Assembly (NCBI GenBank): GCA_051960855.1
Contig: JBQCDV010000155.1
Span: 1-63,847, forward strand
Direction of reading: 5' to 3'
Source: Actinomycetales bacterium
GTDB taxonomy: Bacteria; Actinomycetota; Actinomycetes; JAJZTN01
Length of the DNA stretch: 63,847 bases
A program made the position numbers and the translations under genes. The notes under the pieces were generated by a model. The model was not told the origin of the DNA and did not search any database. It saw only the letters and a program-made list of their open reading frames with translations. This document shows, one piece after another, positions 31,964 to 45,225 of the stretch; within the stretch, counting starts at the first letter, position 1; the number at the start of each line of letters is the position of its first letter.

Positions 31964-32692
31964 CTACAACGCCAGCAGGCCCTTGACGACGGTCAGCGTC
32001 GCTCCGACGACGGCAACGACCGTGGTGGCGAGGCGGGCGCGGTCGGAGGGGACGCGGTCGTGCAGCCACTGCCCGACGAGCGTCCCGACAGCGAGAGCCA
32101 CCAGCGCGACCACGAGCACGCTGCCGGGGACGTGCGGCAGGCCCCCTTTGGCAATCAGGCTGGCGGCGTTGAGGACGCCGAAGAAGATCTGCATCGTCGC
32201 CACGAAGCGGCGGTGTTCCCACTCAGAGGACAGGGCGTAGAGAGCGACTGCGGGACCGGCGATGCCGGCGGTGACGTTGAGGAAGCCGGCTGCGGCACCG
32301 GCGGCCACGGCACCGACGGTTCCCCGCACGACACGCGCGCGCCGGACGAACGTCACCACCAGCAGGGCCAGCACCACGATCGTCCCGACGAAGACCGACA
32401 GCACGGGCGCAGGCAGGTGGCGGGCGACCCACGCCCCCGGCACCAAGGCAAGTAGGGCCGGCACGCCCAGCAGCGCTGCTCGCCGCCACTCGGTCTCCCG
32501 CCAGGTCTGCAACGCGACAACGGCATTGACGACGAGGTTGAGCAGGTTGGCGAGCAGCACGCCCTCGAACGGCCCCAGCAGCAGCACGAGGAACGGTGAG
32601 GAGACCAGGGCGAAGCCCATGCCGGTGACACGCTGCGCGCCGCCCCCGGCGAGGACGGCGCCTGCGACCACCGCGAGCGCGGCGACGGGCAC
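31964..32692 (-). CDS. TauE/SafE family sulfonate/sulfite exporter
   Basis: QRVTGMGFALV and AGIAGP repeats; about 8 TM helices; last gene of the SQ operon. Confidence 0.88.
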   Translation of the reverse strand: MPVAALAVVAGAVLAGGGAQRVTGMGFALVSSPFLVLLLGPFEGVLLANLLNLVVNAVVALQTWRETEWRRAALLGVPALLALVPGAWVARHLPAPVLSVFVGTIVVLALLVVTFVRRARVVRGTVGAVAAGAAAGFLNVTAGIAGPAVALYALSSEWEHRRFVATMQIFFGVLNAASLIAKGGLPHVPGSVLVVALVALAVGTLVGQWLHDRVPSDRARLATTVVAVVGATLTVVKGLLAL

Positions 32693-32698
32693 GGCCGG

Positions 32699-34174
32699 TC
32701 AGACCCCCAGGGCCAGGTGGCGGACGTCGGTGAACTCCTCCAGGCCGAGGCTCGCGCCCTCCCGGCCGAGTCCGGACTGCTTCACGCCCCCCATCGGTGC
32801 GAAGGCGACCGAGGGCAATGCGTCATTGACGCCGACGATGCCCACCTCCAGTCGCTCAGCGAACCGCCACGCGCGCCCGACATCCCGCGACCACACGTAG
32901 CCGGCGAGGCCCATCTCGGTCGCGTTTGCACGGCGCAGCGCCTCGTCCTCGTCCTGGATGCGGAAGACACCGGCGACGGGCCCGAACACCTCCGCGCACG
33001 CCAGCGGGGTTCCATCCGGGACGTCGGCGAGCAGCGCGGGAGCGACCCAGGAGCCCTTGTCCGGCAACGACCTGCGCTGCGTCAGGAGTCGCGCGCCCCC
33101 CTGCAGCGCATGCTCGACGACAGCGTTCACGGCGTCGACCCGCTTATCGTCGATGACCGGTCCGAGGTCGGGGACAGGGTCGGCCAGCCCGTTGCCGATG
33201 AACATGGCATCCACTCGCGCGACCAGCTTGCCGACGAACTCGTCGTAGACGGCCTCATGGACCACCAACCGGTTGGCGGCGATGCAGGACTGACCGGTGT
33301 TGCGGAACTTCGCGATGAGTGCGCCTTCGACAGCCGCGTCGATATCGGCATCATCGAGGACGACAAAGGCAGCGTCCCCGCCGAGCTCCAGCAGCGGACG
33401 GACGATGCGCGGAGCGGACTGCTGCAGGATGAGACGACCGACCTCCGTGGAGCCGGTGAAGGTGACCACGCGAACGGCCGGGTTTCCGAGCAGCGCCGCG
33501 GTCAGCTCCGGAGCTGGGCCGTGCACGAGGTTCACCACGCCGTCGGGGACACCGGCGTCGACCAGGCACCGAACCAGCTCGGTGACAGCCAAGGGCGCCT
33601 TCTCCGACACCCGAGCGACAACCGTGCAGCCGGCAGCGAGCGCGGGAGCGAGCTTGCGGGCCTGGATGGAGCACGGGAAGTTCCAGGGGGTCAGGCTCGC
33701 GACCACTCCGGCAGGCCGCCGCAGCGTCAGGTGCCGCTTGCCCGGGGTCTCGTGCGCAAGGACCTCCCCCACCGGCCGCCGCGCCTGCTCGGCGAACCAT
33801 CGGAAGTACTCCGCTGAGAACGCCACCTCCCCCTGCGCCTCCGGCAGCCGCTTCCCAGCCTCGCGCGCCAGCAGGTGAGCGATCGAGCCGGAGCGCTCCG
33901 CGATGAGGTCGGCTGCGGCAAGCAGGATGTCCGCCCGCTTGCGGGCGGGCAGGGCTCCCCACGGTGTCAGCGCGCGGGCGGCGGCGTCAGCGGCCCGAAC
34001 GGCGTCCGCGTCGCTACCCCACGCCGAACGCCCCACGAGCGAGCCGTCGGCGGGGTCGATGACGTCGAAGGCCTCGTCCCCGTCCCGCCAGTGGCCATCG
34101 ATAAGCATCGGCGCGTAGCCGATCGGGGCGGCTCCGTCTGCGCCGGGTGTCGGAATGGTGGTCGCGCTGGTCAC
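32699..34174 (-). CDS. NAD(P)-dependent aldehyde dehydrogenase (GabD/SlaB-like; probable sulfolactaldehyde dehydrogenase)
   Basis: TPWNFP, FTGSTEVG, LELGG (Glu), GQSCIA (Cys), EVFGPV, PMGGVKQSGLGREG; substrate inferred from context. Confidence 0.88.
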   Translation of the reverse strand: MTSATTIPTPGADGAAPIGYAPMLIDGHWRDGDEAFDVIDPADGSLVGRSAWGSDADAVRAADAAARALTPWGALPARKRADILLAAADLIAERSGSIAHLLAREAGKRLPEAQGEVAFSAEYFRWFAEQARRPVGEVLAHETPGKRHLTLRRPAGVVASLTPWNFPCSIQARKLAPALAAGCTVVARVSEKAPLAVTELVRCLVDAGVPDGVVNLVHGPAPELTAALLGNPAVRVVTFTGSTEVGRLILQQSAPRIVRPLLELGGDAAFVVLDDADIDAAVEGALIAKFRNTGQSCIAANRLVVHEAVYDEFVGKLVARVDAMFIGNGLADPVPDLGPVIDDKRVDAVNAVVEHALQGGARLLTQRRSLPDKGSWVAPALLADVPDGTPLACAEVFGPVAGVFRIQDEDEALRRANATEMGLAGYVWSRDVGRAWRFAERLEVGIVGVNDALPSVAFAPMGGVKQSGLGREGASLGLEEFTDVRHLALGV

Positions 34175-34214
34175 GATCTGCTCCTTGGGGAATTGCACCG
34201 TCAGAGGACAGCGA

Positions 34215-35360
34215 TCACGGAACGAGGATGTCGGGGCGGGTGCGGCCACCGACGACGACTATCGGCCAGGTGCCGTCGTGCACGAGCGGGTCGACGCCGC
34301 GACGCGTGACGAGGCAGGTGTCCTCGACCTTCCAGCCGTCACCGCTGGGGTTCCAGGCCGCGACCGCGTGCTCCGGAACGACGACACCGCTGCCCGGCGT
34401 GGCGAGGCCATCACGGGGCACGAAGCCCGACAAGCCACCCTGATGGTGCCGGTGCCACTCCTGCGGGTCGAAACCGCGGGCCGCGTACGCCGCGGTACCG
34501 GCGGCGAGGATGTCACCGAGGGTCGTACCGGCCCGGGTGGCGTCGAGGAAGGCCGCCTCCACCTGCAGCAGGGCGAAGAAGCGGTCGTACTCCCGCGCCG
34601 GCACCGGCCCGAACGACACGATTCTCGTCACGCTCGCGACCACGCCGTGGCGCCGGGCGCAGGCGACGACCATCGCGCGGCGCCCGAGGCGAGCAGCCGT
34701 CGGCAGCGGGTGACGGTGCGGGCCGATCCGCTCGTCCCCTGCTGCGAAGAGGCAGATGACGTCGCAACCGCGCTCCAGCAGCCCCTCGGCCATCCGCGCG
34801 GCGAGGTCCCACTCGGAGCTGCGCGGACTCACCTGCTGGCAGGCGACGGTGGCGGCAGCCGCAGCGTCAGCACTCACCTCGCGCAGCCGGTCGCGCTGCA
34901 GGGATGTCAACGAGCGGCGGGCGGCGGCGAGCGGGCCCGCGACGTCCACGGCGCCGGGCCACGCTCGGTCAGCGCCAACACGAACCACGGACGCGTCGGG
35001 GAACCCGTCGCTGCGCGCCTCCCACCACGGCACGACCGTCCACTCGACCGGCAGTCCGGCCAGCTCCGTGTCGGCGAGGCGGGGTGCCTCGATCGCGTTC
35101 GCGACGATGCGCAGCGACGGCGCGGTCGAAGCCGTGTCGACGACGACGTCGAAGCACGCAGCGTCGAGCGTCTGCGGCACGTGCCAGCGCGCACCCGTCA
35201 GCCAGCCGATCGTCGCGGGCTCTCGGATCAGCAGGCTGTCGACGTCAGCGGCGCAGGCAATCCCCTGCAGGGCCTCGAGCTTCTCGGGCAGGTCTCCCGC
35301 GCCGGACCGCTCCCCGACGTCGGACCGCAAGCCGGGCTGCGGCGTTCGCAGATCAACCAT
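34215..35360 (-). CDS. M24/creatinase-fold hydrolase, atypical active site
   Basis: WLTG N-domain; RHPLPT, ASVTR, HHQGG, WNPS, KVEDT; overlaps the GH31 stop codon. Confidence 0.82.
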   Translation of the reverse strand: MVDLRTPQPGLRSDVGERSGAGDLPEKLEALQGIACAADVDSLLIREPATIGWLTGARWHVPQTLDAACFDVVVDTASTAPSLRIVANAIEAPRLADTELAGLPVEWTVVPWWEARSDGFPDASVVRVGADRAWPGAVDVAGPLAAARRSLTSLQRDRLREVSADAAAAATVACQQVSPRSSEWDLAARMAEGLLERGCDVICLFAAGDERIGPHRHPLPTAARLGRRAMVVACARRHGVVASVTRIVSFGPVPAREYDRFFALLQVEAAFLDATRAGTTLGDILAAGTAAYAARGFDPQEWHRHHQGGLSGFVPRDGLATPGSGVVVPEHAVAAWNPSGDGWKVEDTCLVTRRGVDPLVHDGTWPIVVVGGRTRPDILVP

Positions 35361-37668
35361 GACGAACGACGCCCGCGATCCGGAGGCCGCCCGGCTGCGG
35401 CCCGTCGACGGTGGCGCTCTCCCCCGTCACAGTGACGCGAACGGGCAGGCCGTCGAAGCCGACGAGGTCGACGGTTGCAGGAGCTTCGCCGTAGGTGTGC
35501 AACTCCCAGGGCGCATCCAGCAGATCGTCGGTGTTGCGCGTCTGGGGTGTCACCGTGACGCGGGGCAGGACGGCACCGTCGCGCACGAGCAGCGGCAGGC
35601 GCTCGAGCGGGACGCTCTCCTGCACCCAGGCTGGTCCCTCGTAGCGCTGGCCCGTGACGAGGTCCGTCCAGCCACCAGGCGGCACGCGGAACCGAACGGG
35701 CGCCTCGCCCACTGAGTCATCGAAGACCGGAGCCACGGCAAGGTCGGAGCCGAGCAGGAACTGGCCGTCAATTCCAGCCGCTGACGGGTCCTCGTCGACC
35801 ATCGACAGCGGCCGCATCACCGGCCAGCCGTGAGCCGCGGACTCGTGGGCAACCTGCCAGAGGTAGGGCAGCAACGAGTAGCGCAGCCGCACCCAGTCCC
35901 GCGCGATGCCGAGGGCGCGGTCACCGAAGGCCCACGGCTCCCGGGGCCGCAGCCCGTGAGCGCGCATCAGCGGCGACAGCGCACCGAGCTGGGTCCACCG
36001 GACGTACAGGGCCGGAGTGAGCTCCGGGCCGAAGAAGCCGCCGATGTCATGGCTCCAGAAGCCCGGAGCCGAGACCGCGTAGGACAGGCCGCCCCGCACG
36101 GTCGCCCGCATGCCGGCGACGCTCGACTCGGCGTCTCCACCCCACTGACCCGGGTACCGCTGCGAGCCGGCCCAGCCGCTGCGGCCCCACACGAGGGGCG
36201 AGCGGCCGGTGAAGTGTGCGATGGCCTCGCTGACCGCAGCGTTGTAGTACAGCGGGTAGAGGTTGTGCGCCTGCTGCGGTGGCGTCCCGTCCGCCAGCGC
36301 AACGTCGTCGGGTAGCGCCTCGCCGAAGTCGGTCTTGAACACGGCGACGCCATCGGCGAGGAACTCCTCGTGCAGGCCCTGCCACCAAGCCTTGGCCTCG
36401 GGGTTGGTGAAGTCGATGAGGGCGCGGGGTCGACCATCGGGGGTCGGCGTCTTGCGGATCGAGGCGATCCCGCCGTCGACGGTCCGGACGAGGTACCCCT
36501 TCGCCTCCGCCTCCGAATAGCGAGGTGACGTCGGGTCGAGGTAGGGCAACTCCCACAGCGAGAGCCGGATCCCGCGCTTCGCAAGCTCATCGAGGAACTG
36601 CTTGCGGTCGCCGAAACGGTCCCTGTTCCAGAGGAAGTCGCAGTTGAGCCGGTCGACGATGAGCCAGTCCGGATCGAGGTGCAGCACGTCGCAGGGCACC
36701 TCGTGCTCGCGCATGCTGTCGGCGACGTCGAGCATCTCGGTGTTGGAGTGGTAGCGGCAGCGGCCCATCCAGTAGCCGAATGCCCACACCGGAGGCACCG
36801 GCGGACGCCCCGTCAGGGCCGTGTAGCCCTCGAGCCGCTCGGCCAAGGTCGGGGCGGCGACGACGTAGAGGTCCAGGACGTCGTCGCCCACCGTGAGACC
36901 AAGGGCCGAAGGCCGGGTGTGGCCGACGTCGGCGGTGACGACCGCACCGGTGTTGAGGAAGCCGGCGTAGCCGCTGCTGGAGTGCCAGACGGGCACCGGC
37001 TTGTAGGCCTGGCCGGTGCCGGTGCCGAGCGCGTCCTCGCTGCGCAGCAGCAGCCGCTGACCGTTCTTGACCAGCCGTGAGAACTGCTCGCCGAAGCCGG
37101 TGATGTCCTCGTCGCTACCCAGCTCGAGATGCAGCGTCGTCCCCTGCTCGTCCAGCAGCACAGGCGGTGCCATCGGCAAGCCGGCCGCCTGCCGCAGCCG
37201 CTGCGCGGTGCGGAGCAGCACCGAGCCGGTCTGCGGGTCCTCGACGGTCACGGTGAAGGGACGGCGACCGATCCGCACGCGCACGCGCGGTGCGGCGACG
37301 ACCACCTCGTCGTCCGACTCCTCAACCGACGGTGCCACAGGCTCCGGCTGGGCATCGACGACGATCCCCGCACCGGTGCCGTCGTCGGCCAGAGCCCGAT
37401 GGCCCCCGGGAGCGAGCACGAGGCGCACTGTCCGGGTGGCCGCCACCGTCACGCGCAGCACCATCGGTGTGGCGTCGGCGGCGGGCAACGACAGGTCGGG
37501 CAGGTTGGGCAGGGTGGTCTCGATGCCCTGCTCGGCCAGCGGCTCTCCCGTCAGCCAGCCGGGCATCAGCCCCACGCGGACAGCCGGCAACGCGACGAGA
37601 GCGAGCTCGACGCCGTTCGGCAGGGTCCGGACGGACTCGACACGACGGACGATGCGCTGGTCGGACAC
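35353..37668 (-). CDS. Glycoside hydrolase family 31 (YicI alpha-xylosidase-like; candidate sulfoquinovosidase)
   Basis: GFGEQF...NGQ, QAYK.VP, PPVWAFG.W, FKTDFGE (nucleophile), WGGD, WSHDIGGF (acid/base), LMRAHG, REPW; GTG after GAAGGGA. Confidence 0.9.
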   Translation of the reverse strand: MSDQRIVRRVESVRTLPNGVELALVALPAVRVGLMPGWLTGEPLAEQGIETTLPNLPDLSLPAADATPMVLRVTVAATRTVRLVLAPGGHRALADDGTGAGIVVDAQPEPVAPSVEESDDEVVVAAPRVRVRIGRRPFTVTVEDPQTGSVLLRTAQRLRQAAGLPMAPPVLLDEQGTTLHLELGSDEDITGFGEQFSRLVKNGQRLLLRSEDALGTGTGQAYKPVPVWHSSSGYAGFLNTGAVVTADVGHTRPSALGLTVGDDVLDLYVVAAPTLAERLEGYTALTGRPPVPPVWAFGYWMGRCRYHSNTEMLDVADSMREHEVPCDVLHLDPDWLIVDRLNCDFLWNRDRFGDRKQFLDELAKRGIRLSLWELPYLDPTSPRYSEAEAKGYLVRTVDGGIASIRKTPTPDGRPRALIDFTNPEAKAWWQGLHEEFLADGVAVFKTDFGEALPDDVALADGTPPQQAHNLYPLYYNAAVSEAIAHFTGRSPLVWGRSGWAGSQRYPGQWGGDAESSVAGMRATVRGGLSYAVSAPGFWSHDIGGFFGPELTPALYVRWTQLGALSPLMRAHGLRPREPWAFGDRALGIARDWVRLRYSLLPYLWQVAHESAAHGWPVMRPLSMVDEDPSAAGIDGQFLLGSDLAVAPVFDDSVGEAPVRFRVPPGGWTDLVTGQRYEGPAWVQESVPLERLPLLVRDGAVLPRVTVTPQTRNTDDLLDAPWELHTYGEAPATVDLVGFDGLPVRVTVTGESATVDGPQPGGLRIAGVVRHG

Positions 37669-37670
37669 TG

Positions 37671-38486
37671 CTATCCCTTCACGGAGCCGGCGGTCAGGCC
37701 GGCGACGAAGTAGCGCTGCAGGAAGACGTAGGCGACGACGACGGGCGCAGAGGCGACGATGACGCCGGTGAACAGCAGCGGGTAGTTGGTGAGGAACTCG
37801 CCCTGGAAGTCCAGCAGAGCCAGGGGAAGCGTCTTCTTGCTCGGGTCGTGGATGAACAGCAGCGGGTACAGCAGGTCGTTCCACTGGATGACGAACAGGA
37901 AGATCGCGGTCGCGGCCAGCGACGGCAGGGCCACCGGGATGATGATCGAGCGGAAGGTCTGCCAAGGATTCGCGCCGTCGATGGAACTGGCCTCGTAGAG
38001 CTCACCCGGCAGGGTGCGCATGAAGCCGGTGAGGATGAACACCGCGACGGGCAGGGCCACGACGATCTCGATGAGGATGAGACCGACCAAGCTGTCGAGC
38101 AGGTGCAGCCGCTGGAAGAGGACGTACTGCGGAATCATGTTCGCCTGCGCCGGCACGGCCATCCCGATGACGAGGAAGCCGAAGATCAGCCAGCCGCGCC
38201 AGCCGGGAATGCGGGCGATGCCGTAGGAGGCGAAGCTGCCGATCGCAAGCGTCAGGACGACGGCGCAGCCGGTGACGATGACGCTGTTGAGGAAGGCTCG
38301 GCCCATGTCCGCATCGCCGAGGACGGTGCCGTAGTTGTGCGGAGACAGCGAGCTCGGCAAGCCGAAGGGGCTGGCGAACAACTGCTTCGTCGTCTTGAAC
38401 GATCCCGTCAATACGACGATAAGCGGGATGGCGACGAGCAGTGCGTAGATGGCGAGGATGACTCGTCGCCCGAGGTTGTGGGTCAT
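37671..38486 (-). CDS. Carbohydrate ABC permease (CUT1)
   Basis: ELYEASSIDGA EAA loop, IQWNDLLYP; 6 TM helices. Confidence 0.93.
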   Translation of the reverse strand: MTHNLGRRVILAIYALLVAIPLIVVLTGSFKTTKQLFASPFGLPSSLSPHNYGTVLGDADMGRAFLNSVIVTGCAVVLTLAIGSFASYGIARIPGWRGWLIFGFLVIGMAVPAQANMIPQYVLFQRLHLLDSLVGLILIEIVVALPVAVFILTGFMRTLPGELYEASSIDGANPWQTFRSIIIPVALPSLAATAIFLFVIQWNDLLYPLLFIHDPSKKTLPLALLDFQGEFLTNYPLLFTGVIVASAPVVVAYVFLQRYFVAGLTAGSVKG

Positions 38487-38505: not shown

Positions 38506-39507
38506 TCAGGTGGACGGCTGCGTCAGCCGCACCGCACGCCGCTGCACGAAGCTGACGACGGCGATGATGAGCATGAACACGATCGACTCGGCGGCGGCGT
38601 AGCCGAACTGCGAGTTGGTGAACGTCGTGTAGATGCGCGTGGACAGGATGTCCATCGAGTTCTTCGGCGGGTTGCCACCGAGACCGAGGATGAGGTCGAA
38701 GGCCTTGAACGACTGGACGGTCGTGTAGGCAATGACGATCGCGGTCGCCGGTGCCACCATCGGCCAGGTGACGTAGCGGAAGCGCTGCCAGCGGCCGGCC
38801 CCGTCGAGGTCGGCCGACTCGTAGAGCTCGGCCGGGATCTGCTGCAGCCCCGCGATGAAGATGACCATCAGCTGGCCCGTGTGCGCCCACACCTGGCACA
38901 GCGCCACCCAGTAGATCGCCTGCCGCGGATTCCCGAGGAAGGCGCTCTGCATCCCGTCGAGCCCGACAGCTCCGAGGGTCTGGTTAATCAGCCCGAAGTT
39001 CGGGTCGTACATGAACTTCCAGACAAAGGCCACCGACACCGACGACAAGATCGTGGGCAGGAAGTAGAGCGACCGCAGCGCCGTGGACGACCGGGAGTTG
39101 CGCTGCAGCAGGAGCGCGAGCAGCAGAGACAGGCCGGTCTGCAGGATCACCACGACCAGCAGGAACTTCACGTTGTTGAACACCGCGTTGCGGAACAGGT
39201 CATCGTTGGTCGCGATGTTGGTGAAGTTGCCGAGCCCCACGGACTTGAAGGCGGCACTGAAGCCGTCCCAGTTGGTCACCGAGTACTCGAAGGCCTGCAG
39301 GGTCGGCAGCGCGAAGAACACGACGTACAGCGCGACGGCCGGCAACGGGAAGAGCCACATCGCTGGGTGGACCCGGGTGGGCCCCCGGCCCCGGAAGCGC
39401 ACACCACCACGGGGACGCGGAGTCTCCGGGTAGGTGGCCGCCGGGGCGGGGACGCCGCCCTTGGGATCAGGAGCTGAGGTCGCCCTCTTCGGCACGGAAA
39501 CTGGCAT
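38506..39507 (-). CDS. Carbohydrate ABC permease (CUT1)
   Basis: AGLQQIPAELYESADLDGA EAA loop, FKAFD. Confidence 0.93.
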   Translation of the reverse strand: MPVSVPKRATSAPDPKGGVPAPAATYPETPRPRGGVRFRGRGPTRVHPAMWLFPLPAVALYVVFFALPTLQAFEYSVTNWDGFSAAFKSVGLGNFTNIATNDDLFRNAVFNNVKFLLVVVILQTGLSLLLALLLQRNSRSSTALRSLYFLPTILSSVSVAFVWKFMYDPNFGLINQTLGAVGLDGMQSAFLGNPRQAIYWVALCQVWAHTGQLMVIFIAGLQQIPAELYESADLDGAGRWQRFRYVTWPMVAPATAIVIAYTTVQSFKAFDLILGLGGNPPKNSMDILSTRIYTTFTNSQFGYAAAESIVFMLIIAVVSFVQRRAVRLTQPST

Positions 39508-39516
39508 GAGGAGCCC

Positions 39517-40833
39517 CTACTGGCTGCGCTTCTGGTCGACGATCTTCTGGGCGTCAGCGGCGGCCTGCTGGGGGCTCTTGCCACCGACGACCGCGATGCA
39601 CGAGCCCTCGACGGCGTTGCGGATGTCGAGGTTGTTGAACTGGAACCGCGGTGCGAGCAGCGTCTTCTTCTGCAGCCACGGACTGATCGCCTTGAGGTCC
39701 GGGTTGGTGTAGTCGACGTCCTTCACGCTGACGTTCTGGCTGGTGCCGTTGGCGTACACGCCGGCGACCTCGGGCTGCGACAGGTACTGGAGCCAGGCGA
39801 GCGCCGCACCCTGGTTCTTCGACGCACTGTTGACGCCGAGCACGAAGGTCGCGTTGTAGATGCCCTCGTACTTCGCCTTGTCAGCGCTCGTCGTGATCGG
39901 CGAGAGCAGGTTCATCGGGAACTTTGCACCGAGTCCGCGCACGGCGGCGATGTGGTACGACCCAGTGGCGAGCATGCCAGCCTTGCCGGTGGCGAAGATC
40001 TGCTGGCAGGGCTCGACGGCGGTGCCCGTGCTGTTGGGCTGGAAGTACGGCCGCAGCTGCGCGTACTGCTGCAGCGTCTTGAGGAACCAGTCATCGGTGC
40101 ACTTGTACTCGCCCGACTCGATCTTGGCGCACATATCGTCGGAGGGAGCGTTGTTCATGACCATGGAGTTGAACAGCTGACCAGCGTTGCCGGCGTCGCC
40201 GCCGGGCCACGCGATCGGGACCAGGCCCTGGGACTTCAGCTTGTCGCACAGGGCGAGGAAGCTGTCCCAGTCCTTCGGTGGCGTGCCGCCGTCGGCCTTG
40301 CTGATGATGTCCTCGTTGGTCACCGGCATGTTGAAGACGACCTGGTAGGGGAAACCGAGCTGCTTGCCGTCGACTTTGCCTGAGGAGATGAGAGACGCCT
40401 CGTAGTTGGAGACGAACGGCTGGCTCGACAGGTCCGTGTAGATGCCCGCCTTGACCATGTCGACGAACTGGGCACCGCGGAAGGCTGTGAAGACGTCGCC
40501 GACCGCGCCTCCGCGGATCCGCTGGAGGGCCGAGGACTGGTAGTCATTCGAGGGCGAGATGTCCTGCGTGACCGTGACGCCGGGGTTCTTCTTCTGGAAG
40601 TCAGCGATCATCTTGTCGAAGACGGCCTTGTCCTCCGCCCGCCAGTGGGCGAAGGAGACCTTGCCTGACGCCTTTGCACCGGACGCCGGCGCGGACGGCT
40701 TGGCCGCCCCTGTTGCGCCACCGCTGCTGCTCCCACCGGGGCCAGCGCACGCCGCCAGCGCGAGTCCCGCGCCGGTGGCGCCGAAGAGCTTCAGCAGCTG
40801 GCGTCGCGACAGGGCGTTTTCGTCGTTGCTCAT
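39517..40833 (-). CDS. CUT1 ABC substrate-binding lipoprotein (Tat-type signal)
   Basis: LSRRQLLK + LAAC lipobox; extracellular solute-binding family features. Confidence 0.92.
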   Translation of the reverse strand: MSNDENALSRRQLLKLFGATGAGLALAACAGPGGSSSGGATGAAKPSAPASGAKASGKVSFAHWRAEDKAVFDKMIADFQKKNPGVTVTQDISPSNDYQSSALQRIRGGAVGDVFTAFRGAQFVDMVKAGIYTDLSSQPFVSNYEASLISSGKVDGKQLGFPYQVVFNMPVTNEDIISKADGGTPPKDWDSFLALCDKLKSQGLVPIAWPGGDAGNAGQLFNSMVMNNAPSDDMCAKIESGEYKCTDDWFLKTLQQYAQLRPYFQPNSTGTAVEPCQQIFATGKAGMLATGSYHIAAVRGLGAKFPMNLLSPITTSADKAKYEGIYNATFVLGVNSASKNQGAALAWLQYLSQPEVAGVYANGTSQNVSVKDVDYTNPDLKAISPWLQKKTLLAPRFQFNNLDIRNAVEGSCIAVVGGKSPQQAAADAQKIVDQKRSQ

Positions 40834-40891: not shown

Positions 40892-42391
40892 TCACCACTC
40901 GATGACGCGAATGCCGCAAAGGTCGGCGGCTTGGCGCAGCGCGGGCCGGACGTCCGTCCAGGCCAGCACGGTGTGGTGCGGGAAGCCGCCGGTCACCAGG
41001 CCGGCAACGAACTCCGCTGCCGGAGCCGACAACCGGACGGCCGCGGTGTTGCCCTGGAACCGGTTGGGCTCCGGGATCGACTCTCCTGACGCGATCAGCA
41101 GGCGCAGCCCGGTGGCGCTGTCCGGGTCTGGATCCTCGGTAATCCGAGCCATCACCACAGGGCCGGTCTTGAGCGGGAAGTTGCCCGCGACGCCGATCTT
41201 TCGGTTGCAGTGCACGGACTGGGTCGCCGCCTCAGGGTCGGCGGCGAGCGACGTCGCCGCCGAGCCGCAGTGCCAGACGCGGACGACATTGGCGTCGGCA
41301 TCGAGGTCGACGGTGTCGACGAGATAGGTCGTGCCGCTGCCCAGCGCCTCCAGCAACAGCATGGTCACGGTGCCGTAGACATCGCGCTCGCACGCCGTGG
41401 GGACGCCCTCGTCAGCCAAGCGCGACAGCGCGGAGCAGGGGCAGACACCTAGCTGGGTAGGAAACTCCGGCCAGCAGCGCACCGCGATCCCAGACAGGAC
41501 GTCTGCTGCGCTCCAGCCACGCAGCGCGCTAGTGACTGCGGCGAAACGCCGCACCTGCTCGGGGTCGAGGTCAGCGAGACTCGGCCGGGCCGCCAGCGAG
41601 GCGCTCTGCTCGGCGTCGACGCCGGCGTCCGGCACCGCGCGCGCCAGGTCGAAGGCGTCCTCGACGCCGATCTCGTCCACCTGGAGGCCGAAGACGTCGG
41701 AGAGGACGGCGGCGTCGTACTGGCTGGGGGTGAAGCCGGGAGGGGCGTCCCCGACCAGGCCGATCCGCTTGCCGCGCAGCGAGTCCAAGGCCGGGCGCAC
41801 GGACTCGGAGTCCGCACGCTCGCGCTGCTCCGTCGGAAGGGCCGGCGCCTCGGGAAGCTGGCCGCGCAGCGCAGCCTGCAGCGCCGCCCGCACGTGCGGC
41901 TCGCCCGGGTCGCCGTAGAGTAAGCGCACGGCGCCTCCCGCGCGCACGAGGGCGTGGCCGAAGAGGTTCGCCCCACACAGGGAGTTCAACCAGAGCCGGT
42001 CCCCCACCGGACCGGGCTCGCGGAAGGACCAGAGCAGGACGGGCCGGTCGAGGTCGGAGTAGAGCCGTAGTGCGGGAGTCGCGTCGGAGAAGGACGCGCA
42101 CACGTTGAGGTAGAGCTCGGCATCCGCGCCGACGAACGACGCCGCGGCCTCGACATCCTCCGGCGTCATGACGAGCTCGGTCGGTCCGCTCACCTGCGCG
42201 CCCAAGTCGGTCAGCAGCTGCCGGGCGGCCTCGGCGCGCTCACGTGCGGTCTCAACGGCGAAGGTGGGACGGGCGGTGGCCACCATGACGACGCGGGGAC
42301 CGTCGCCGGCGGCGTTCGGGGAGTGGGTGAGCGACGACGGCGCGCTCGGCACGGTCGCAGCGGCCTCGGCGGGAGTCGTGGGGGCGGTCAT
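40892..42391 (-). CDS. L-fucose/L-arabinose-isomerase-fold sugar isomerase (SqvD/SftI-like; probable sulfoquinovose isomerase)
   Basis: NSLCG, AVRCWPE, ACERDVYG, WHCG, FPHH; ATGA overlap with the aldolase; substrate inferred from context. Confidence 0.8.
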   Translation of the reverse strand: MTAPTTPAEAAATVPSAPSSLTHSPNAAGDGPRVVMVATARPTFAVETARERAEAARQLLTDLGAQVSGPTELVMTPEDVEAAASFVGADAELYLNVCASFSDATPALRLYSDLDRPVLLWSFREPGPVGDRLWLNSLCGANLFGHALVRAGGAVRLLYGDPGEPHVRAALQAALRGQLPEAPALPTEQRERADSESVRPALDSLRGKRIGLVGDAPPGFTPSQYDAAVLSDVFGLQVDEIGVEDAFDLARAVPDAGVDAEQSASLAARPSLADLDPEQVRRFAAVTSALRGWSAADVLSGIAVRCWPEFPTQLGVCPCSALSRLADEGVPTACERDVYGTVTMLLLEALGSGTTYLVDTVDLDADANVVRVWHCGSAATSLAADPEAATQSVHCNRKIGVAGNFPLKTGPVVMARITEDPDPDSATGLRLLIASGESIPEPNRFQGNTAAVRLSAPAAEFVAGLVTGGFPHHTVLAWTDVRPALRQAADLCGIRVIEW

Positions 42392-43320
42392 CGCGCGGAC
42401 ACTGCCTCGTCCACGACCTGGCCGAGCCGCTGCAGCCGCGCGACGGCGTCCTGCTCGAGGGAGGCCCGCACGTCGGGGGCAGCGATGCACGCGCGCCAGA
42501 CCGCACGCCCCGCCAGGAAGCCGGAGGCGCCCGCTTGGATTGCAAGCTGGACGGCTCGGGGGAAGACGTCGTCCTTAACGCCGGAGGAGAGCACGACCCA
42601 GGGTGAGGCGACCGCCTCGGTGATCTGGGCGCACTGGCGCGACACCTCGGCCTCGTCACCCTCACCGTGCAGTGGTACCTCGGCCTTGTACAGGTCCACC
42701 CCGAGGTCGCCGAGCTCACGGGCCGCGGCAAGGATGCCGTCGCCCCAGTCCCAGGCGCGGCCGTCCAGCGGCGGGCGGGAGACGGGCTCGATGATGCTGA
42801 CGAGCCCGGCTGTCTGGCAGCGAGCACGGAAGTCCTCGACCATCGCCGTGCGCTGCTCGGGGTCACCGTCTGGTCGCCAGATGACCAGGAGCTTCGCGGC
42901 GACCGCGCCCTGGGCCGCGTAGTGCTCGAGGTCCACCGCGTCGTCGATGACCGCGTCGCCGACGACCTCCTGCGGTCCGGGGATGAAGTGGTCGGCCGCG
43001 ACGATGAGGCCGCACCCGGGGGCGACGACGCTCTGCTCGAGGGCCTGGTCAAGCACGAACTGCTTGTCGAGCAGGACGGCTGAGGCGTAAGGCGTGAGGA
43101 TGCGGGCGGCCTCGAGCTTGAAGGCAGTGACATCAGCGTCGGGGATGTCGCGCTGCTGCTGCTCGGCGAGCATGCCGCGCAAGGCCTCGCGCTGGTCGAC
43201 GGCCAGCATCGCGAAGGCGCCAGAAGGGCGACGCAGGTCGTCCAGTGAGGCCCGAGAGGTCCGGTCGTGCGCGGGTGCCACGTCGGTCGAGCTGGGGGAA
43301 GCGGTCAGAGGGTCGGGCAC
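42388..43320 (-). CDS. yihT: Sulfofructose-1-phosphate aldolase (class I)
   Basis: SGAFAMLAVDQREA, FK..AA..L.PYASA.L.D.QF, LIVAAD.FIPG, KLLV.WR.D, GLVSIIEPV.RPP, DLYK.E.PL.G.G, PWV.LSSGV...FPRAV..A..AGASGFLAGRAVW; matches the E. coli YihT pattern as I recall it. Confidence 0.88.
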   Translation of the reverse strand: MPDPLTASPSSTDVAPAHDRTSRASLDDLRRPSGAFAMLAVDQREALRGMLAEQQQRDIPDADVTAFKLEAARILTPYASAVLLDKQFVLDQALEQSVVAPGCGLIVAADHFIPGPQEVVGDAVIDDAVDLEHYAAQGAVAAKLLVIWRPDGDPEQRTAMVEDFRARCQTAGLVSIIEPVSRPPLDGRAWDWGDGILAAARELGDLGVDLYKAEVPLHGEGDEAEVSRQCAQITEAVASPWVVLSSGVKDDVFPRAVQLAIQAGASGFLAGRAVWRACIAAPDVRASLEQDAVARLQRLGQVVDEAVSAR

Positions 43321-44237
43321 GGTGAGCTCTCCTCGAGGGTCGCGGCCAGGGCAGCCGCCTCGTCGTGAGTGGGGATCCGGGATCGGCCGTCGAGACCGCG
43401 GCAGGACAGGGCGGCGACGGCGTTGGCATAAGCCAGCGCGCGGGGCAACGGCTCGCTCCGCGTCGCGGCTGCGACGAGCGCACCGTGGAAGACGTCGCCC
43501 GCACCGAGGGTGGAGACGATCTCGAGGGAGGCGCCTGGCACCTCGGCCCGCTCACCGGCGGCACTTCGTCCGACCGAGCCGCGGCCCCCGCGAGTGGCGA
43601 CGACGAGTTGGGCGCCGTCATCCAGGCTGCGCGCCAGGGCACTGTCGAGCTCGTCCACTCCGTAGCGCGCCAGCAGCGACTCCTCGGTCGGGACGTCCAG
43701 GGCGACGCCGCGCGGCTGGTACCCGGGGATGGTGTTGCCGCAGTCGACGCTGACCTGAGCGTCGGTGGACACCGCGTGACGCAGTGAGGTGAGAGCCGGC
43801 CAGCCCAGGTGGTCGACGTGGACCCAGCCTGCCGCGGCGAGCAGCTCGGCGACCGGGCCGGTTGCCTCGAGGGCCAGCGGCGGCTGCGGCCGCGTGCAGA
43901 TCGCCCGGGTCCCTCGGCCGCGGTCCACGATGACGACACTGACGCCGGTCTGGGCGCCCTTTCGGCGGGTGACCGCGCTCACCCCGACGCCCTCAGCGAC
44001 GAGGTCGGCGACGAGCCGCTCCCCGATCTCGTCGTCCCCGACCACTCCCACGAAGTGAACGTCGCGGATGCCCAGGCGCGCAGCGGCAACTGCGGCCGTT
44101 GCTGCCGGACCTCCGCCTGCGACGACGATGTCGTCGGCCACGAGCCGCTCGTCGGGAGCGGGGGTGTGGTCCGTCAGGGCGATGGTGTCGAGGGTCGAGA
44201 CCCCGAGGAACACGACCGGGCCCACTGTCACTGTCAC
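43305..44237 (-). CDS. yihV: PfkB sugar kinase, YihV-like sulfofructose kinase
   Basis: GGGPAATAAVAAARLG, GVVGDD, STLGAGDVFHGA; adjacent to yihT. Confidence 0.78.
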   Translation of the reverse strand: MTVTVGPVVFLGVSTLDTIALTDHTPAPDERLVADDIVVAGGGPAATAAVAAARLGIRDVHFVGVVGDDEIGERLVADLVAEGVGVSAVTRRKGAQTGVSVVIVDRGRGTRAICTRPQPPLALEATGPVAELLAAAGWVHVDHLGWPALTSLRHAVSTDAQVSVDCGNTIPGYQPRGVALDVPTEESLLARYGVDELDSALARSLDDGAQLVVATRGGRGSVGRSAAGERAEVPGASLEIVSTLGAGDVFHGALVAAATRSEPLPRALAYANAVAALSCRGLDGRSRIPTHDEAAALAATLEESSPCPTL

Positions 44238-44261
44238 CGTCCTTCTGCCGAGCGAATGATG

Positions 44262-44293
44262 AGACAGTAACAACGAATGTTGGAAAGTCAACA
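44262..44293. promoter_or_regulatory. SQ-operon promoter with overlapping palindromic operator candidates
   Basis: Minus strand TTGACT-N16-TACTGT; overlapping CAAC-GAAT-GTTG (44271-44282) and TGTTG-GAAAGT-CAACA (44278-44293). Confidence 0.6.
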
Positions 44294-44397
44294 CTCTCGC
44301 TACGATGAACTTCGGGGTTCACGGCGCAGGCGCGTTGGCACCTCTCGGGAGCGGGCAGCGTGCCACGCTGTCGCGAGAAGGTAGGAGGTCGCGTGCG

Positions 44398-45225
44398 ATG
44401 AGCACCGAGGTGTGGCCCGAGCAGGCCGTGGCCGGCGGCTCGATGCGGTACGACCGCGCGCCCGACCGCCGTGCCCGCATCCTCGAGACGGTGGCGGCGC
44501 ACGGCTTTGTGTCCGTCACTGCCCTGGCCGCAGATCTGGGCGTCTCGGACATGACCATCCGGCGCGACCTTCGACGCCTGTCCGCCGCCGGCGAAGTCCG
44601 CGTCTTCCACGGCGGGGTCAGCCTCCCCCACGCCACCCTGCGAACCTCGGAGTTCGTCTCACGGGCGGAGTCGAATGCCGAGGCCAAGAGCCGCGTCTCG
44701 GAACGGGCAGCACAGCTGGTGCGCGAGGACGACGTCGTAGCTATCGACGCGGGGACGACCGCCTTCGGAGTCGTCACTGCTCTGCCACCGAGCTTCCGCG
44801 GGACTGTCGTCACGCACTCTGTGCCGGCGATCCAGCACCTCCTGCATCGCCCGGACGCCCGGCTGGTGGGGCTCGGCGGCGAGCTGTACCCGCCGAGCCA
44901 GGCCTTTGTCGGCCAAGCGGCCGTCGACCAGGCGCAGCACGTCCGGGTGCGCGTATTGATCCTCGGCGCCGCAGCGGTCGACGCACGCGGCGTCTATGCA
45001 GAGGCCGATGTCGAGCGCAGCGTCAAGCTCGCCCTCATCGACGCCGCCGACGACGTGGTGCTCGTCGTCGACTCGACGAAGTTCACCGCGAGGGCGTCCG
45101 TGCGGCTGTGCGGACTCGAACGCCTCACACACCTCGTCACCGACGCTCCGCCTCCCCCGGCGCTGCGGCGCCAACTGCGTCAGGACGCCGTCGAGGTCAT
45201 CCTCGCGGCGCCCGCCACCGCCTGA
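44398..45225 (+). CDS. DeoR/GlpR family regulator (CsqR-like position)
   Basis: RRARIL..V...G.VSV..LA..LGVSDMTIRRDL, IDAGTT, DSTKF. Confidence 0.93.
   Translation: MSTEVWPEQAVAGGSMRYDRAPDRRARILETVAAHGFVSVTALAADLGVSDMTIRRDLRRLSAAGEVRVFHGGVSLPHATLRTSEFVSRAESNAEAKSRVSERAAQLVREDDVVAIDAGTTAFGVVTALPPSFRGTVVTHSVPAIQHLLHRPDARLVGLGGELYPPSQAFVGQAAVDQAQHVRVRVLILGAAAVDARGVYAEADVERSVKLALIDAADDVVLVVDSTKFTARASVRLCGLERLTHLVTDAPPPPALRRQLRQDAVEVILAAPATA

Follow-up and report, generated by a model that had tools for sequence, protein, structure and literature searches.

About 10 Pg of sulfoquinovose are produced each year, and sulfoquinovosidases are the gateway to its breakdown. For this reaction glycoside hydrolase family 31 (GH31) is known to provide two solutions, YihQ and SqgH, and a third, NAD-dependent one is SqgA of family GH188. 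Here we analyse a GH31 gene (35353..37668, minus strand) of an Actinomycetales bacterium, located on contig JBQCDV010000155.1 of assembly GCA_051960855.1, the whole analysed stretch of which (63,847 nucleotides) is referred to as the window. The encoded protein resembles the alpha-xylosidase YicI, lies in a sulfoglycolytic operon and is a candidate sulfoquinovosidase.

The Q/E-RWY motif is the sulfonate-binding signature of the YihQ-type sulfoquinovosidases (Ma et al. 2025, Nat Commun, PMC12780224). The same study established AmSqgH (WP_014951134.1) from Alteromonas macleodii ATCC 27126, which is devoid of this motif, as a true sulfoquinovosidase with a kcat/KM of about 9e3 M-1 s-1 on p-nitrophenyl (PNP) sulfoquinovoside, and proposed R302, T377, K412 and F513 as its binding residues. 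AmSqgH forms a clade of its own near GH31_3 and GH31_6, is formally assigned to GH31_3 by the hidden Markov model method of CAZy, and was reported, with a membership cut-off of 50% identity, only in marine Gammaproteobacteria using the sulfo-SDO (dioxygenase) pathway (PMC12780224). The concept of a non-YihQ GH31 sulfoquinovosidase from the YicI branch is thus already published.

A candidate sulfoquinovosidase of non-YihQ origin

We consider it likely that the window GH31 is a cytoplasmic retaining alpha-sulfoquinovosidase, predicted to be the first enzyme of a hybrid sulfo-Embden-Meyerhof-Parnas (sulfo-EMP) pathway. This role is supported by the neighbouring genes, which are homologous to those of proven sulfoglycolysis enzymes (YihT, YihV, the SftI model and GabD), by a gene order that is kept in 66 loci representing at least 25 genera, and by the lack of any YihQ-type GH31 in the genome, which is 97.5% complete. 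At the level of the protein, the pair C307/F308 of YicI is replaced by P333/D334. Among the relatives of the window GH31, P0123, which keeps a DRLNCDF motif and K445, is encoded in a sulfosugar-like cluster, while P0124 and P0126, which are without R340 and K445, are not; other YicI-like GH31 clades occur in sulfo-EMP, sulfo-EMP2-like and sulfo-transaldolase (sulfo-TAL) clusters. SqgH provides the precedent of a proven sulfoquinovosidase that is formally a GH31_3 member and lacks the RWY motif (PMC12780224). A sulfoquinovosidase of non-YihQ origin is thus supported, the support being computational throughout.

Three observations weigh against this assignment. E. coli YicI (GH31_3) is inactive on PNP-sulfoquinovoside (PMC12780224), so that placement near YicI is, on its own, no predictor of sulfoquinovosidase activity. 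The loop carrying R340 is the least confident part of the structural model, with a predicted local distance difference test (pLDDT) score of 65-78 over residues 331-350. Finally, R340 was rejected as a stand-alone diagnostic residue, an Arg being present in that column also in some proteins of the YicI clade that have the DCFW motif.

The GH31 protein and its active site

The gene and its relevant segments are the following (positions are window coordinates; motif positions were checked via the translation):
35353..37668, minus strand: GH31 glycosidase of 771 amino acids, candidate sulfoquinovosidase (Pfam PF13802, PF01055 and PF21365)
36628..36681, minus strand: loop after barrel strand 1, HLDPDWLIVDRLNCDFLW, residues 330-347 (MAFFT alignments and translation)
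36424..36450, minus strand: clade-specific loop TPTPDGRPR, residues 407-415, longer than the corresponding loop of YicI
36319..36339, minus strand: FKTDFGE, residues 444-450, with K445 and the nucleophile D447 (codon 36328-36330), aligned with YicI D416 and YihQ D405
36133..36135, minus strand: acid/base D512 in QWGGDAES, aligned with YicI D482 and YihQ D472

The open reading frame (ORF) is intact, its GTG start lies 2 nt past the stop of the preceding permease gene, and its final 8 nt (ATGGTTGA) are shared with the start of the next gene, which encodes an M24-fold protein. All three GH31 domains were recovered with Pfam, the PF01055 TIM barrel with 297.6 bits, and the AlphaFold2 model of the protein has a pLDDT of 92.3 and a predicted template modelling (pTM) score of 0.93; the fold and the intactness of the catalytic residues are established. 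Reading of the N-terminus revealed no signal peptide in the GH31, while the substrate-binding protein of the operon has a lipoprotein signal. The lack of a signal peptide in the GH31 implies that its substrate is an imported glycoside.

The contexts FKTDFGE and HLDPDW...CDFLW, from which the original prediction deduced a resemblance to YicI, were both located in the protein, and the resemblance extends to the whole sequence and fold. In phmmer comparison with PDB chains the top match is 5f7c (1.7e-112), and YicI is found at 1e-101 versus about 1e-38 for YihQ. Foldseek comparison of the model gives YicI as the top matches, with template modelling (TM) scores of 0.80-0.82, and YihQ is absent from the top 50 matches. 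The protein nevertheless scores below the cut-off of both curated NCBIfam models, with 463.8 bits against 606 for the YicI model (NF007940) and 224.4 bits against 553 for the YihQ model (NF007746), and thus qualifies as an equivalog of neither YicI nor YihQ. Cys307/Phe308 are reportedly the specificity pair of YicI.

The HLDPDWLIVDRLNCDFLW loop contains D332, D334, R340, N342 and C343. The MG1655 record supplied the E. coli YicI and YihQ sequences used for alignment. R340 is placed against YihQ R301 in each of two separate MAFFT alignments, gap-free up to a common W-N anchor, a correspondence that is one of alignment; N342 lies opposite the Arg found in the SqgH-type clade and C343 opposite YihQ W304. 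The "R..W segment" of the YihQ-type enzymes had been described as missing from the window protein, and this proved correct for the Trp and incorrect for the Arg. Comparison with the Q/E-RWY residues led to the same picture, W, Y and Q/E288 being unmatched and the Arg alone matched. The WMADFGE context is missing, as originally stated, since the window GH31 has FKTDFGE where YihQ has GWMADFGE.

We propose that the room for the 6-sulfonate would arise from the replacement of those YicI residues that close the C5 side, F308 by D334 and W315 by N342, and that the sulfonate would be bound by the cationic R340, with R413, R415 and T407 of the clade-specific loop possibly contributing. Together with D411, the latter three residues are candidates for further contacts with the sulfonate or with the aglycone.

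The sulfoglycolytic operon

The GH31 gene is part of a tight operon of abutting or overlapping minus-strand genes, with a divergent regulator gene at its upstream end:
31964..32692, minus strand: exporter of the TauE/SafE family, candidate for sulfolactate export (Pfam PF01925, E 6e-25)
32699..34249, minus strand: GabD-type aldehyde dehydrogenase, candidate sulfolactaldehyde dehydrogenase (Pfam Aldedh, 500 bits; PDB 8c54, 3e-108)
34215..35360, minus strand: M24-fold protein (Pfam PF00557, E 6e-9; creatinase/prolidase fold)
37671-38486 and 38506-39507, minus strand: two permeases of an ATP-binding cassette (ABC) transporter (Pfam BPD_transp_1)
39517..40833, minus strand: substrate-binding lipoprotein of the ABC importer (Pfam SBP_bac_1; twin-arginine-like signal and lipobox, SRRQLL...LAAC)
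40892..42490, minus strand: candidate sulfoquinovose isomerase of the SftI/SqvD type (NCBIfam NF048012, 275 bits, E 9e-82, under the 700-bit cut-off)
42388..43320, minus strand: class I aldolase, orthologue of YihT (sulfofructose-1-phosphate aldolase; 47% identity over 291 residues, E 4e-93; Pfam DeoC/LacD)
43305..44294, minus strand: YihV-like PfkB kinase (sulfofructose kinase; 36% identity to E. coli YihV, E 9e-31; Pfam PfkB)
44305..45225, plus strand: divergent DeoR-family regulator (Pfam HTH_DeoR and DeoRC)

The homology of these neighbours to sulfoglycolysis genes is established; PDB entry 8c54, the match of the aldehyde dehydrogenase, is presumably the sulfolactaldehyde dehydrogenase RlGabD described by Li et al. 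2023 (PMC10599462). The GH31 is the sole glycosidase of the operon according to Pfam, in agreement with the original prediction, and the same survey found no xylose or glucoside catabolic genes in it. The only other GH31 gene of the genome (294-1208 of the 2.7-kb contig C140, locus L006) scores 95 bits against the YihQ cut-off of 553, and is neither YihQ- nor YicI-like by the NCBIfam cut-offs.

Some of the ORFs probably start later than drawn. The true start of the isomerase is probably downstream of the one listed, the long ORFs beginning at 44294 and 44305 probably extend too far upstream, and we place the predicted starts of the kinase near 44237 (GTG) and of the DeoR gene at the ATG at 44399. 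In the resulting gap of about 160 bp between these two genes, which is richer in AT, the inverted repeat GAATGTTGGAAAGTCAACACTC (TGTTG...CAACA, 44275-44296) is a candidate operator.

The M24-fold gene is translationally coupled to the GH31 by the 8-nt overlap. In an alignment with the prolidase 5cdl its product has other residues in place of Asp, Asp and His metal ligands, most ligands being lost. This protein may be an aglycone helper or a partner of the GH31.

Conservation and distribution of the clade

Proteins that are 63-84% identical to the window GH31 fall into about 120 clusters; wherever named, their source is an actinomycetote, and their database labels are "alpha-xylosidase" or "TIM-barrel domain-containing protein". 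The 66 loci come from a scan of one genome per species, with orthologues that are 55-84% identical to the window GH31; all the genera are actinobacterial, and the nearest locus (84%) is that of a Motilibacteraceae metagenome-assembled genome (MAG). The cultured carriers of the cluster include Nostocoides sp. Soil756, Kribbella caucasensis VKM Ac-2527, Pedococcus cremeus, Humibacillus xanthopallidus and Streptomyces oryzae. Among 400 other Actinomycetota genomes, sampled evenly, an orthologue was present in only 2, a rarity which marks the cluster as a patchy accessory trait.

Gene presence was scored by tblastn with the window proteins in the 46 loci of at least 19 kb. The aldolase and the DeoR regulator were each found in 45 of them, the binding protein in 43, the kinase and the isomerase each in 41, the TauE exporter in 40 and the aldehyde dehydrogenase in 38; the conservation of the gene order is established. 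Of the 45 loci with both genes, 42 have the M24-like gene immediately downstream of the GH31, and 13 of the 46 long loci, such as that of Streptomyces oryzae, lack it while retaining the complete pathway. Residues D334, T407, D411, R413, R415, K445, D447, D512 and F545 are present in all 120 representatives of the clade, in which the P333/D334 pair is invariant too. R340 is present in 116 and N342 in 118 of the 120, and residue 343 is either Cys (61) or Thr (59).

Some loci deviate from this organization. The orthologue of Prauserella rugosa (L049, 7978-10290; HADPDWLVVDRLNCDF), 60% identical to the window GH31 and with the full signature, is in the only long locus in which examination of the flanks revealed no sulfo-EMP gene at all. 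In two Cryobacterium spp. (L060 and L067) the GH31 is accompanied by the kinase, aldolase, TauE and DeoR genes, but by neither the SftI-like isomerase nor the window-type ABC importer; another isomerase and transporter are probably used at these loci.

The conserved gene order bears on the proposal that the GH31 is an ordinary alpha-glucosidase or alpha-xylosidase that is a mere passenger in the operon, free sulfoquinovose being imported or the cleavage being carried out by an enzyme such as the GH188 member SqgA. The YicI-like sequence and fold would be compatible with this, and Arthrobacter sulfo-EMP clusters use SqgA, not a GH31 (reviewed in PMC12890257). We nevertheless consider a passenger improbable, since a passenger gene would hardly be expected to show a near-obligate gene order (45/46) among orthologues that are only 55-84% identical and spread over at least 25 genera, the operon offers no catabolic genes for xylose or glucosides, the xylosidase pair C307/F308 of YicI is missing, and the score of 463.8 bits is below that demanded of a YicI equivalog (606).

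The behaviour of the M24-like gene bears on a different proposal, namely that the GH31 cleaves another sulfoquinovose glycoside (one with a different aglycone, an acylated one or an oligosaccharide) and that the M24-fold protein processes the aglycone or the modification before or after cleavage. Consistent with this, the metal-ligand-poor M24-like gene is coupled to the GH31, the binding protein is of the carbohydrate uptake transporter 1 (CUT1) oligosaccharide type with oligosaccharide binders as its best PDB matches, and the clade-specific loop 407-415 could shape the +1 subsite. However, the M24-like gene is dispensable, as its absence from 13 of the 46 long loci indicates, binders of the CUT1 type often serve small glycosides as well, and the natural substrate proposed for intracellular sulfoquinovosidases is sulfoquinovosyl glycerol (PMC12780224). 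We therefore regard a different glycoside as unlikely, albeit less so than a passenger, and retain the hydrolysis of an alpha-sulfoquinovoside, most likely sulfoquinovosyl glycerol, as the preferred function.

Phylogeny and relationship to SqgH

Trees were constructed with FastTree and IQ-TREE from the best 50%-identity representatives together with YicI and YihQ. The window clade forms a fully supported superclade with P0123, P0124, P0126, P0152 and P0127. In both trees the SqgH-type clade is separate from this superclade and the true YicI (DCFW) clade is located elsewhere; deep branches are weak in both. Judged by sequence, the window clade is a distinct actinobacterial clade, restricted to Actinomycetota, that belongs neither to GH31_13 nor to the published SqgH clade. 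The independence of the window GH31 from the YihQ subfamily (GH31_13) is clear. In the quick maximum likelihood (ML) tree the superclade and the SqgH-type clade fall in one weakly supported group (Shimodaira-Hasegawa-like approximate likelihood ratio test, SH-aLRT, 82). Under the approximately unbiased (AU) test, the joining of the superclade to the SqgH-type clade is not rejected (p 0.275), and the same holds for its joining to the YicI clade (p 0.541), so that we make no claim on the number of origins within the YicI-like region. The YicI branch to which the protein had been assigned is the nearer one in sequence and fold, while the trees place the protein outside the DCFW clade of YicI proper, although their joining is left unrejected by the AU test. 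As to the independent evolution of sulfoquinovosidase activity suggested at the outset, gene context lends strong support to a sulfoquinovosidase role that arose apart from the YihQ subfamily, and SqgH had already supplied the concept (PMC12780224).

SqgH comparisons were made with a stand-in, P0497, not with AmSqgH itself. It was chosen by the fingerprint spacing R(K-110), T(K-35), F(K+101), which picks out a marine gammaproteobacterial clade whose motif reads LDGRAW...TR[FC]...VLTPLP; P0497 has R302, T377, K412 and F513 at exactly these numbers, and its clade, which includes proteins from Paraglaciecola, Cellvibrionaceae, Halieaceae and Porticoccaceae, is the probable SqgH clade. The window GH31 is 32% identical to P0497, which is below the 50% cut-off of Ma et al. 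and no nearer than to YicI.

In favour of the window GH31 being a divergent member of the SqgH clade, with a common origin and binding mode, are the unrejected joining and the weak grouping in the ML tree, as well as the equivalence of K445 and F545 with SqgH K412 and F513. YicI, however, has both of these residues too. T407 and T377, both in a TPxP context, are paired by BLASTP and not by MAFFT. The low identity to P0497, the alignment of SqgH R302 with N342, and the difference in phylum and pathway all argue against such membership, and the AU test, which equally leaves the joining with YicI unrejected, shows that the tree cannot decide. We hold this explanation to be very improbable, and treat the window GH31 as a representative of its own clade.

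The relatives of the window GH31 and of SqgH were inspected for their gene context:
P0123 (L007, 2-14823): nearest outlier, metagenomic, 48% identical, keeping DRLNCDF and K445; sulfo-Entner-Doudoroff (sulfo-ED)-like cluster
P0124 and P0126: sister proteins without R340 and K445; no sulfosugar-like cluster
P0172/P0303: SqgH-type clade, Rhodospirillales MAG; PfkB kinase, DeoC aldolase, FucI-like isomerase, SuyAB-like and Ldh_2 genes
P0142: SqgH-type clade, Limnochorda pilosa; transaldolase, aldehyde dehydrogenase, ABC importer and SuyAB-like genes
P0132: P0132-type clade; PFK-type kinase, aldehyde dehydrogenase, SuyAB-like genes and ABC importer
P0134 and P0145: other clades; no sulfoglycolytic context

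The cluster of P0123 encodes a dehydratase of the enolase superfamily (not of the IlvD type), a lactonase, an aldehyde dehydrogenase and an ABC importer, together with a sulfolactate-dehydrogenase-like Ldh_2 gene and a gene for an aldolase of the dihydrodipicolinate synthase (DHDPS) type, and may represent a variant pathway. At L010 (10001-12214), L011 (10001-12613) and L081 (8476-10827), GH31 genes of the SqgH type or related to it stand beside SuyAB-like sulfolactate lyase genes, in clusters of the sulfo-EMP-hybrid (Rhodospirillales MAG), sulfo-TAL (Limnochorda pilosa) and sulfo-EMP2-like kinds. YicI-like GH31 genes are tied to several sulfoglycolytic routes in several phyla, a range wider than that of the published account of SqgH. 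In an Armatimonadota MAG (L079, 8001-10382), the P0145 GH31 gene is adjacent to two glycerophosphodiester phosphodiesterase genes, ABC importers and a YihU-type NAD_binding_2 gene, which may constitute a different pathway for a glycolipid head group.

A broader interpretation, which we put forward tentatively and with less than even confidence, is that the window clade, the SqgH-type clade and the P0132-type clade constitute one large and old second lineage of GH31 sulfoquinovosidases outside GH31_13, extending over at least six phyla. These may include Actinomycetota, Pseudomonadota (Alpha- and Gammaproteobacteria) and the Limnochorda lineage, and the lineage may be linked to sulfo-EMP, sulfo-EMP2, sulfo-TAL, sulfo-ED-like and sulfo-SDO clusters. 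In such a lineage the cationic contact to the sulfonate may have shifted within one loop, being provided by R340 here and at the position of R302 in SqgH.

Proposed pathway and its significance

From the observations on the locus and its homologs we infer both the substrate and the recognition of its sulfonate, and propose the following route. The secreted lipoprotein would bind an alpha-sulfoquinovoside, most likely sulfoquinovosyl glycerol derived from plant sulfolipid, which the ABC permeases would import. The GH31 would hydrolyse it to free sulfoquinovose by a retaining mechanism with D447 as the nucleophile and D512 as the acid/base. Sulfoquinovose would then be isomerised by the SftI-like enzyme and phosphorylated by the YihV-like kinase, and the YihT-like aldolase would split the product into dihydroxyacetone phosphate and sulfolactaldehyde. 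Oxidation of sulfolactaldehyde by the GabD-like enzyme would generate sulfolactate, to be exported by TauE.

If the clade is active as proposed, it would represent a further active-site solution for sulfonate recognition in GH31, and YicI-like sulfoquinovosidases would not be restricted to marine Gammaproteobacteria with the dioxygenase pathway, contrary to the current description. They would act in classical sulfoglycolysis in Actinomycetota of the soil, among them Streptomyces, Kribbella, Micromonospora and the Intrasporangiaceae, and the signature HxDPDWL[IV]VDRLN[CT]DF, TPxPDGRxR and WGGDAES could be used to annotate proteins that are now labelled alpha-xylosidase. If the second lineage is real, surveys with YihQ, SqgH or SqgA at 40-50% identity would miss such enzymes, and the use of sulfoquinovosides by soil bacteria would be underestimated in the published surveys.

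Comparison with known systems

The window cluster is of the same kind as the hybrid sulfo-EMP clusters described in Actinobacteria (PMC10599462; Sharma et al. 2023, PMC10665668). In the survey of Li et al. 2023 (Chem Sci, PMC10599462), a PF01055 gene adjoining the sulfolactaldehyde dehydrogenase is coloured as "Family GH31 SQase" (sulfoquinovosidase); this label derives from Pfam membership only, and the non-YihQ nature of these GH31 proteins is unrecorded there.

With YicI (GH31_3; PDB 1WE5, 2F2H and 8T7Z), the window GH31 shares the domain order and the KTDFGE, WGGD and WSHDIGGF motifs. It differs in having an identity of only 31%, in carrying P333/D334 and N342 in place of C307/F308 and W315, in the greater length of the loop preceding DFTNP, and in its sulfoglycolysis context, as opposed to the yicJ-type xyloside transporter context of YicI.

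The likeness to YihQ and AtSQase (GH31_13; PDB 5AED, 5AEE and 5OHS) consists in the proposed reaction and position in the pathway and in the Asp/Asp pair of a retaining GH31, to which an Arg at the aligned R301 position of YihQ (R340) may be added on the strength of the alignment. In the window GH31, however, W304 of YihQ is replaced by C343 (Cys or Thr across the clade), Y508 by F545 and Q288 by D332, the nucleophile context is FKTDFGE instead of GWMADFGE, and the insertions of YihQ are missing.

SqgH and the window GH31 are both GH31 proteins outside GH31_13 with no Q/E-RWY motif, both are cytoplasmic (the window GH31 by prediction), and both are encoded in a sulfoquinovose catabolic cluster adjoining an importer; a Lys two residues ahead of the nucleophile and the Phe of DIGGF are likewise common to them. 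According to the MAFFT alignment with P0497, R302 of SqgH is replaced by N342 and the Arg of the window protein, R340, is found two residues earlier in the segment; in the SqgH type, 6 more residues are present in the loop of T377. In published work SqgH is described only from marine Gammaproteobacteria with the sulfo-SDO pathway and with tripartite ATP-independent periplasmic (TRAP) or TonB transport, while the window clade belongs to Actinomycetota with the sulfo-EMP pathway and an ABC importer.

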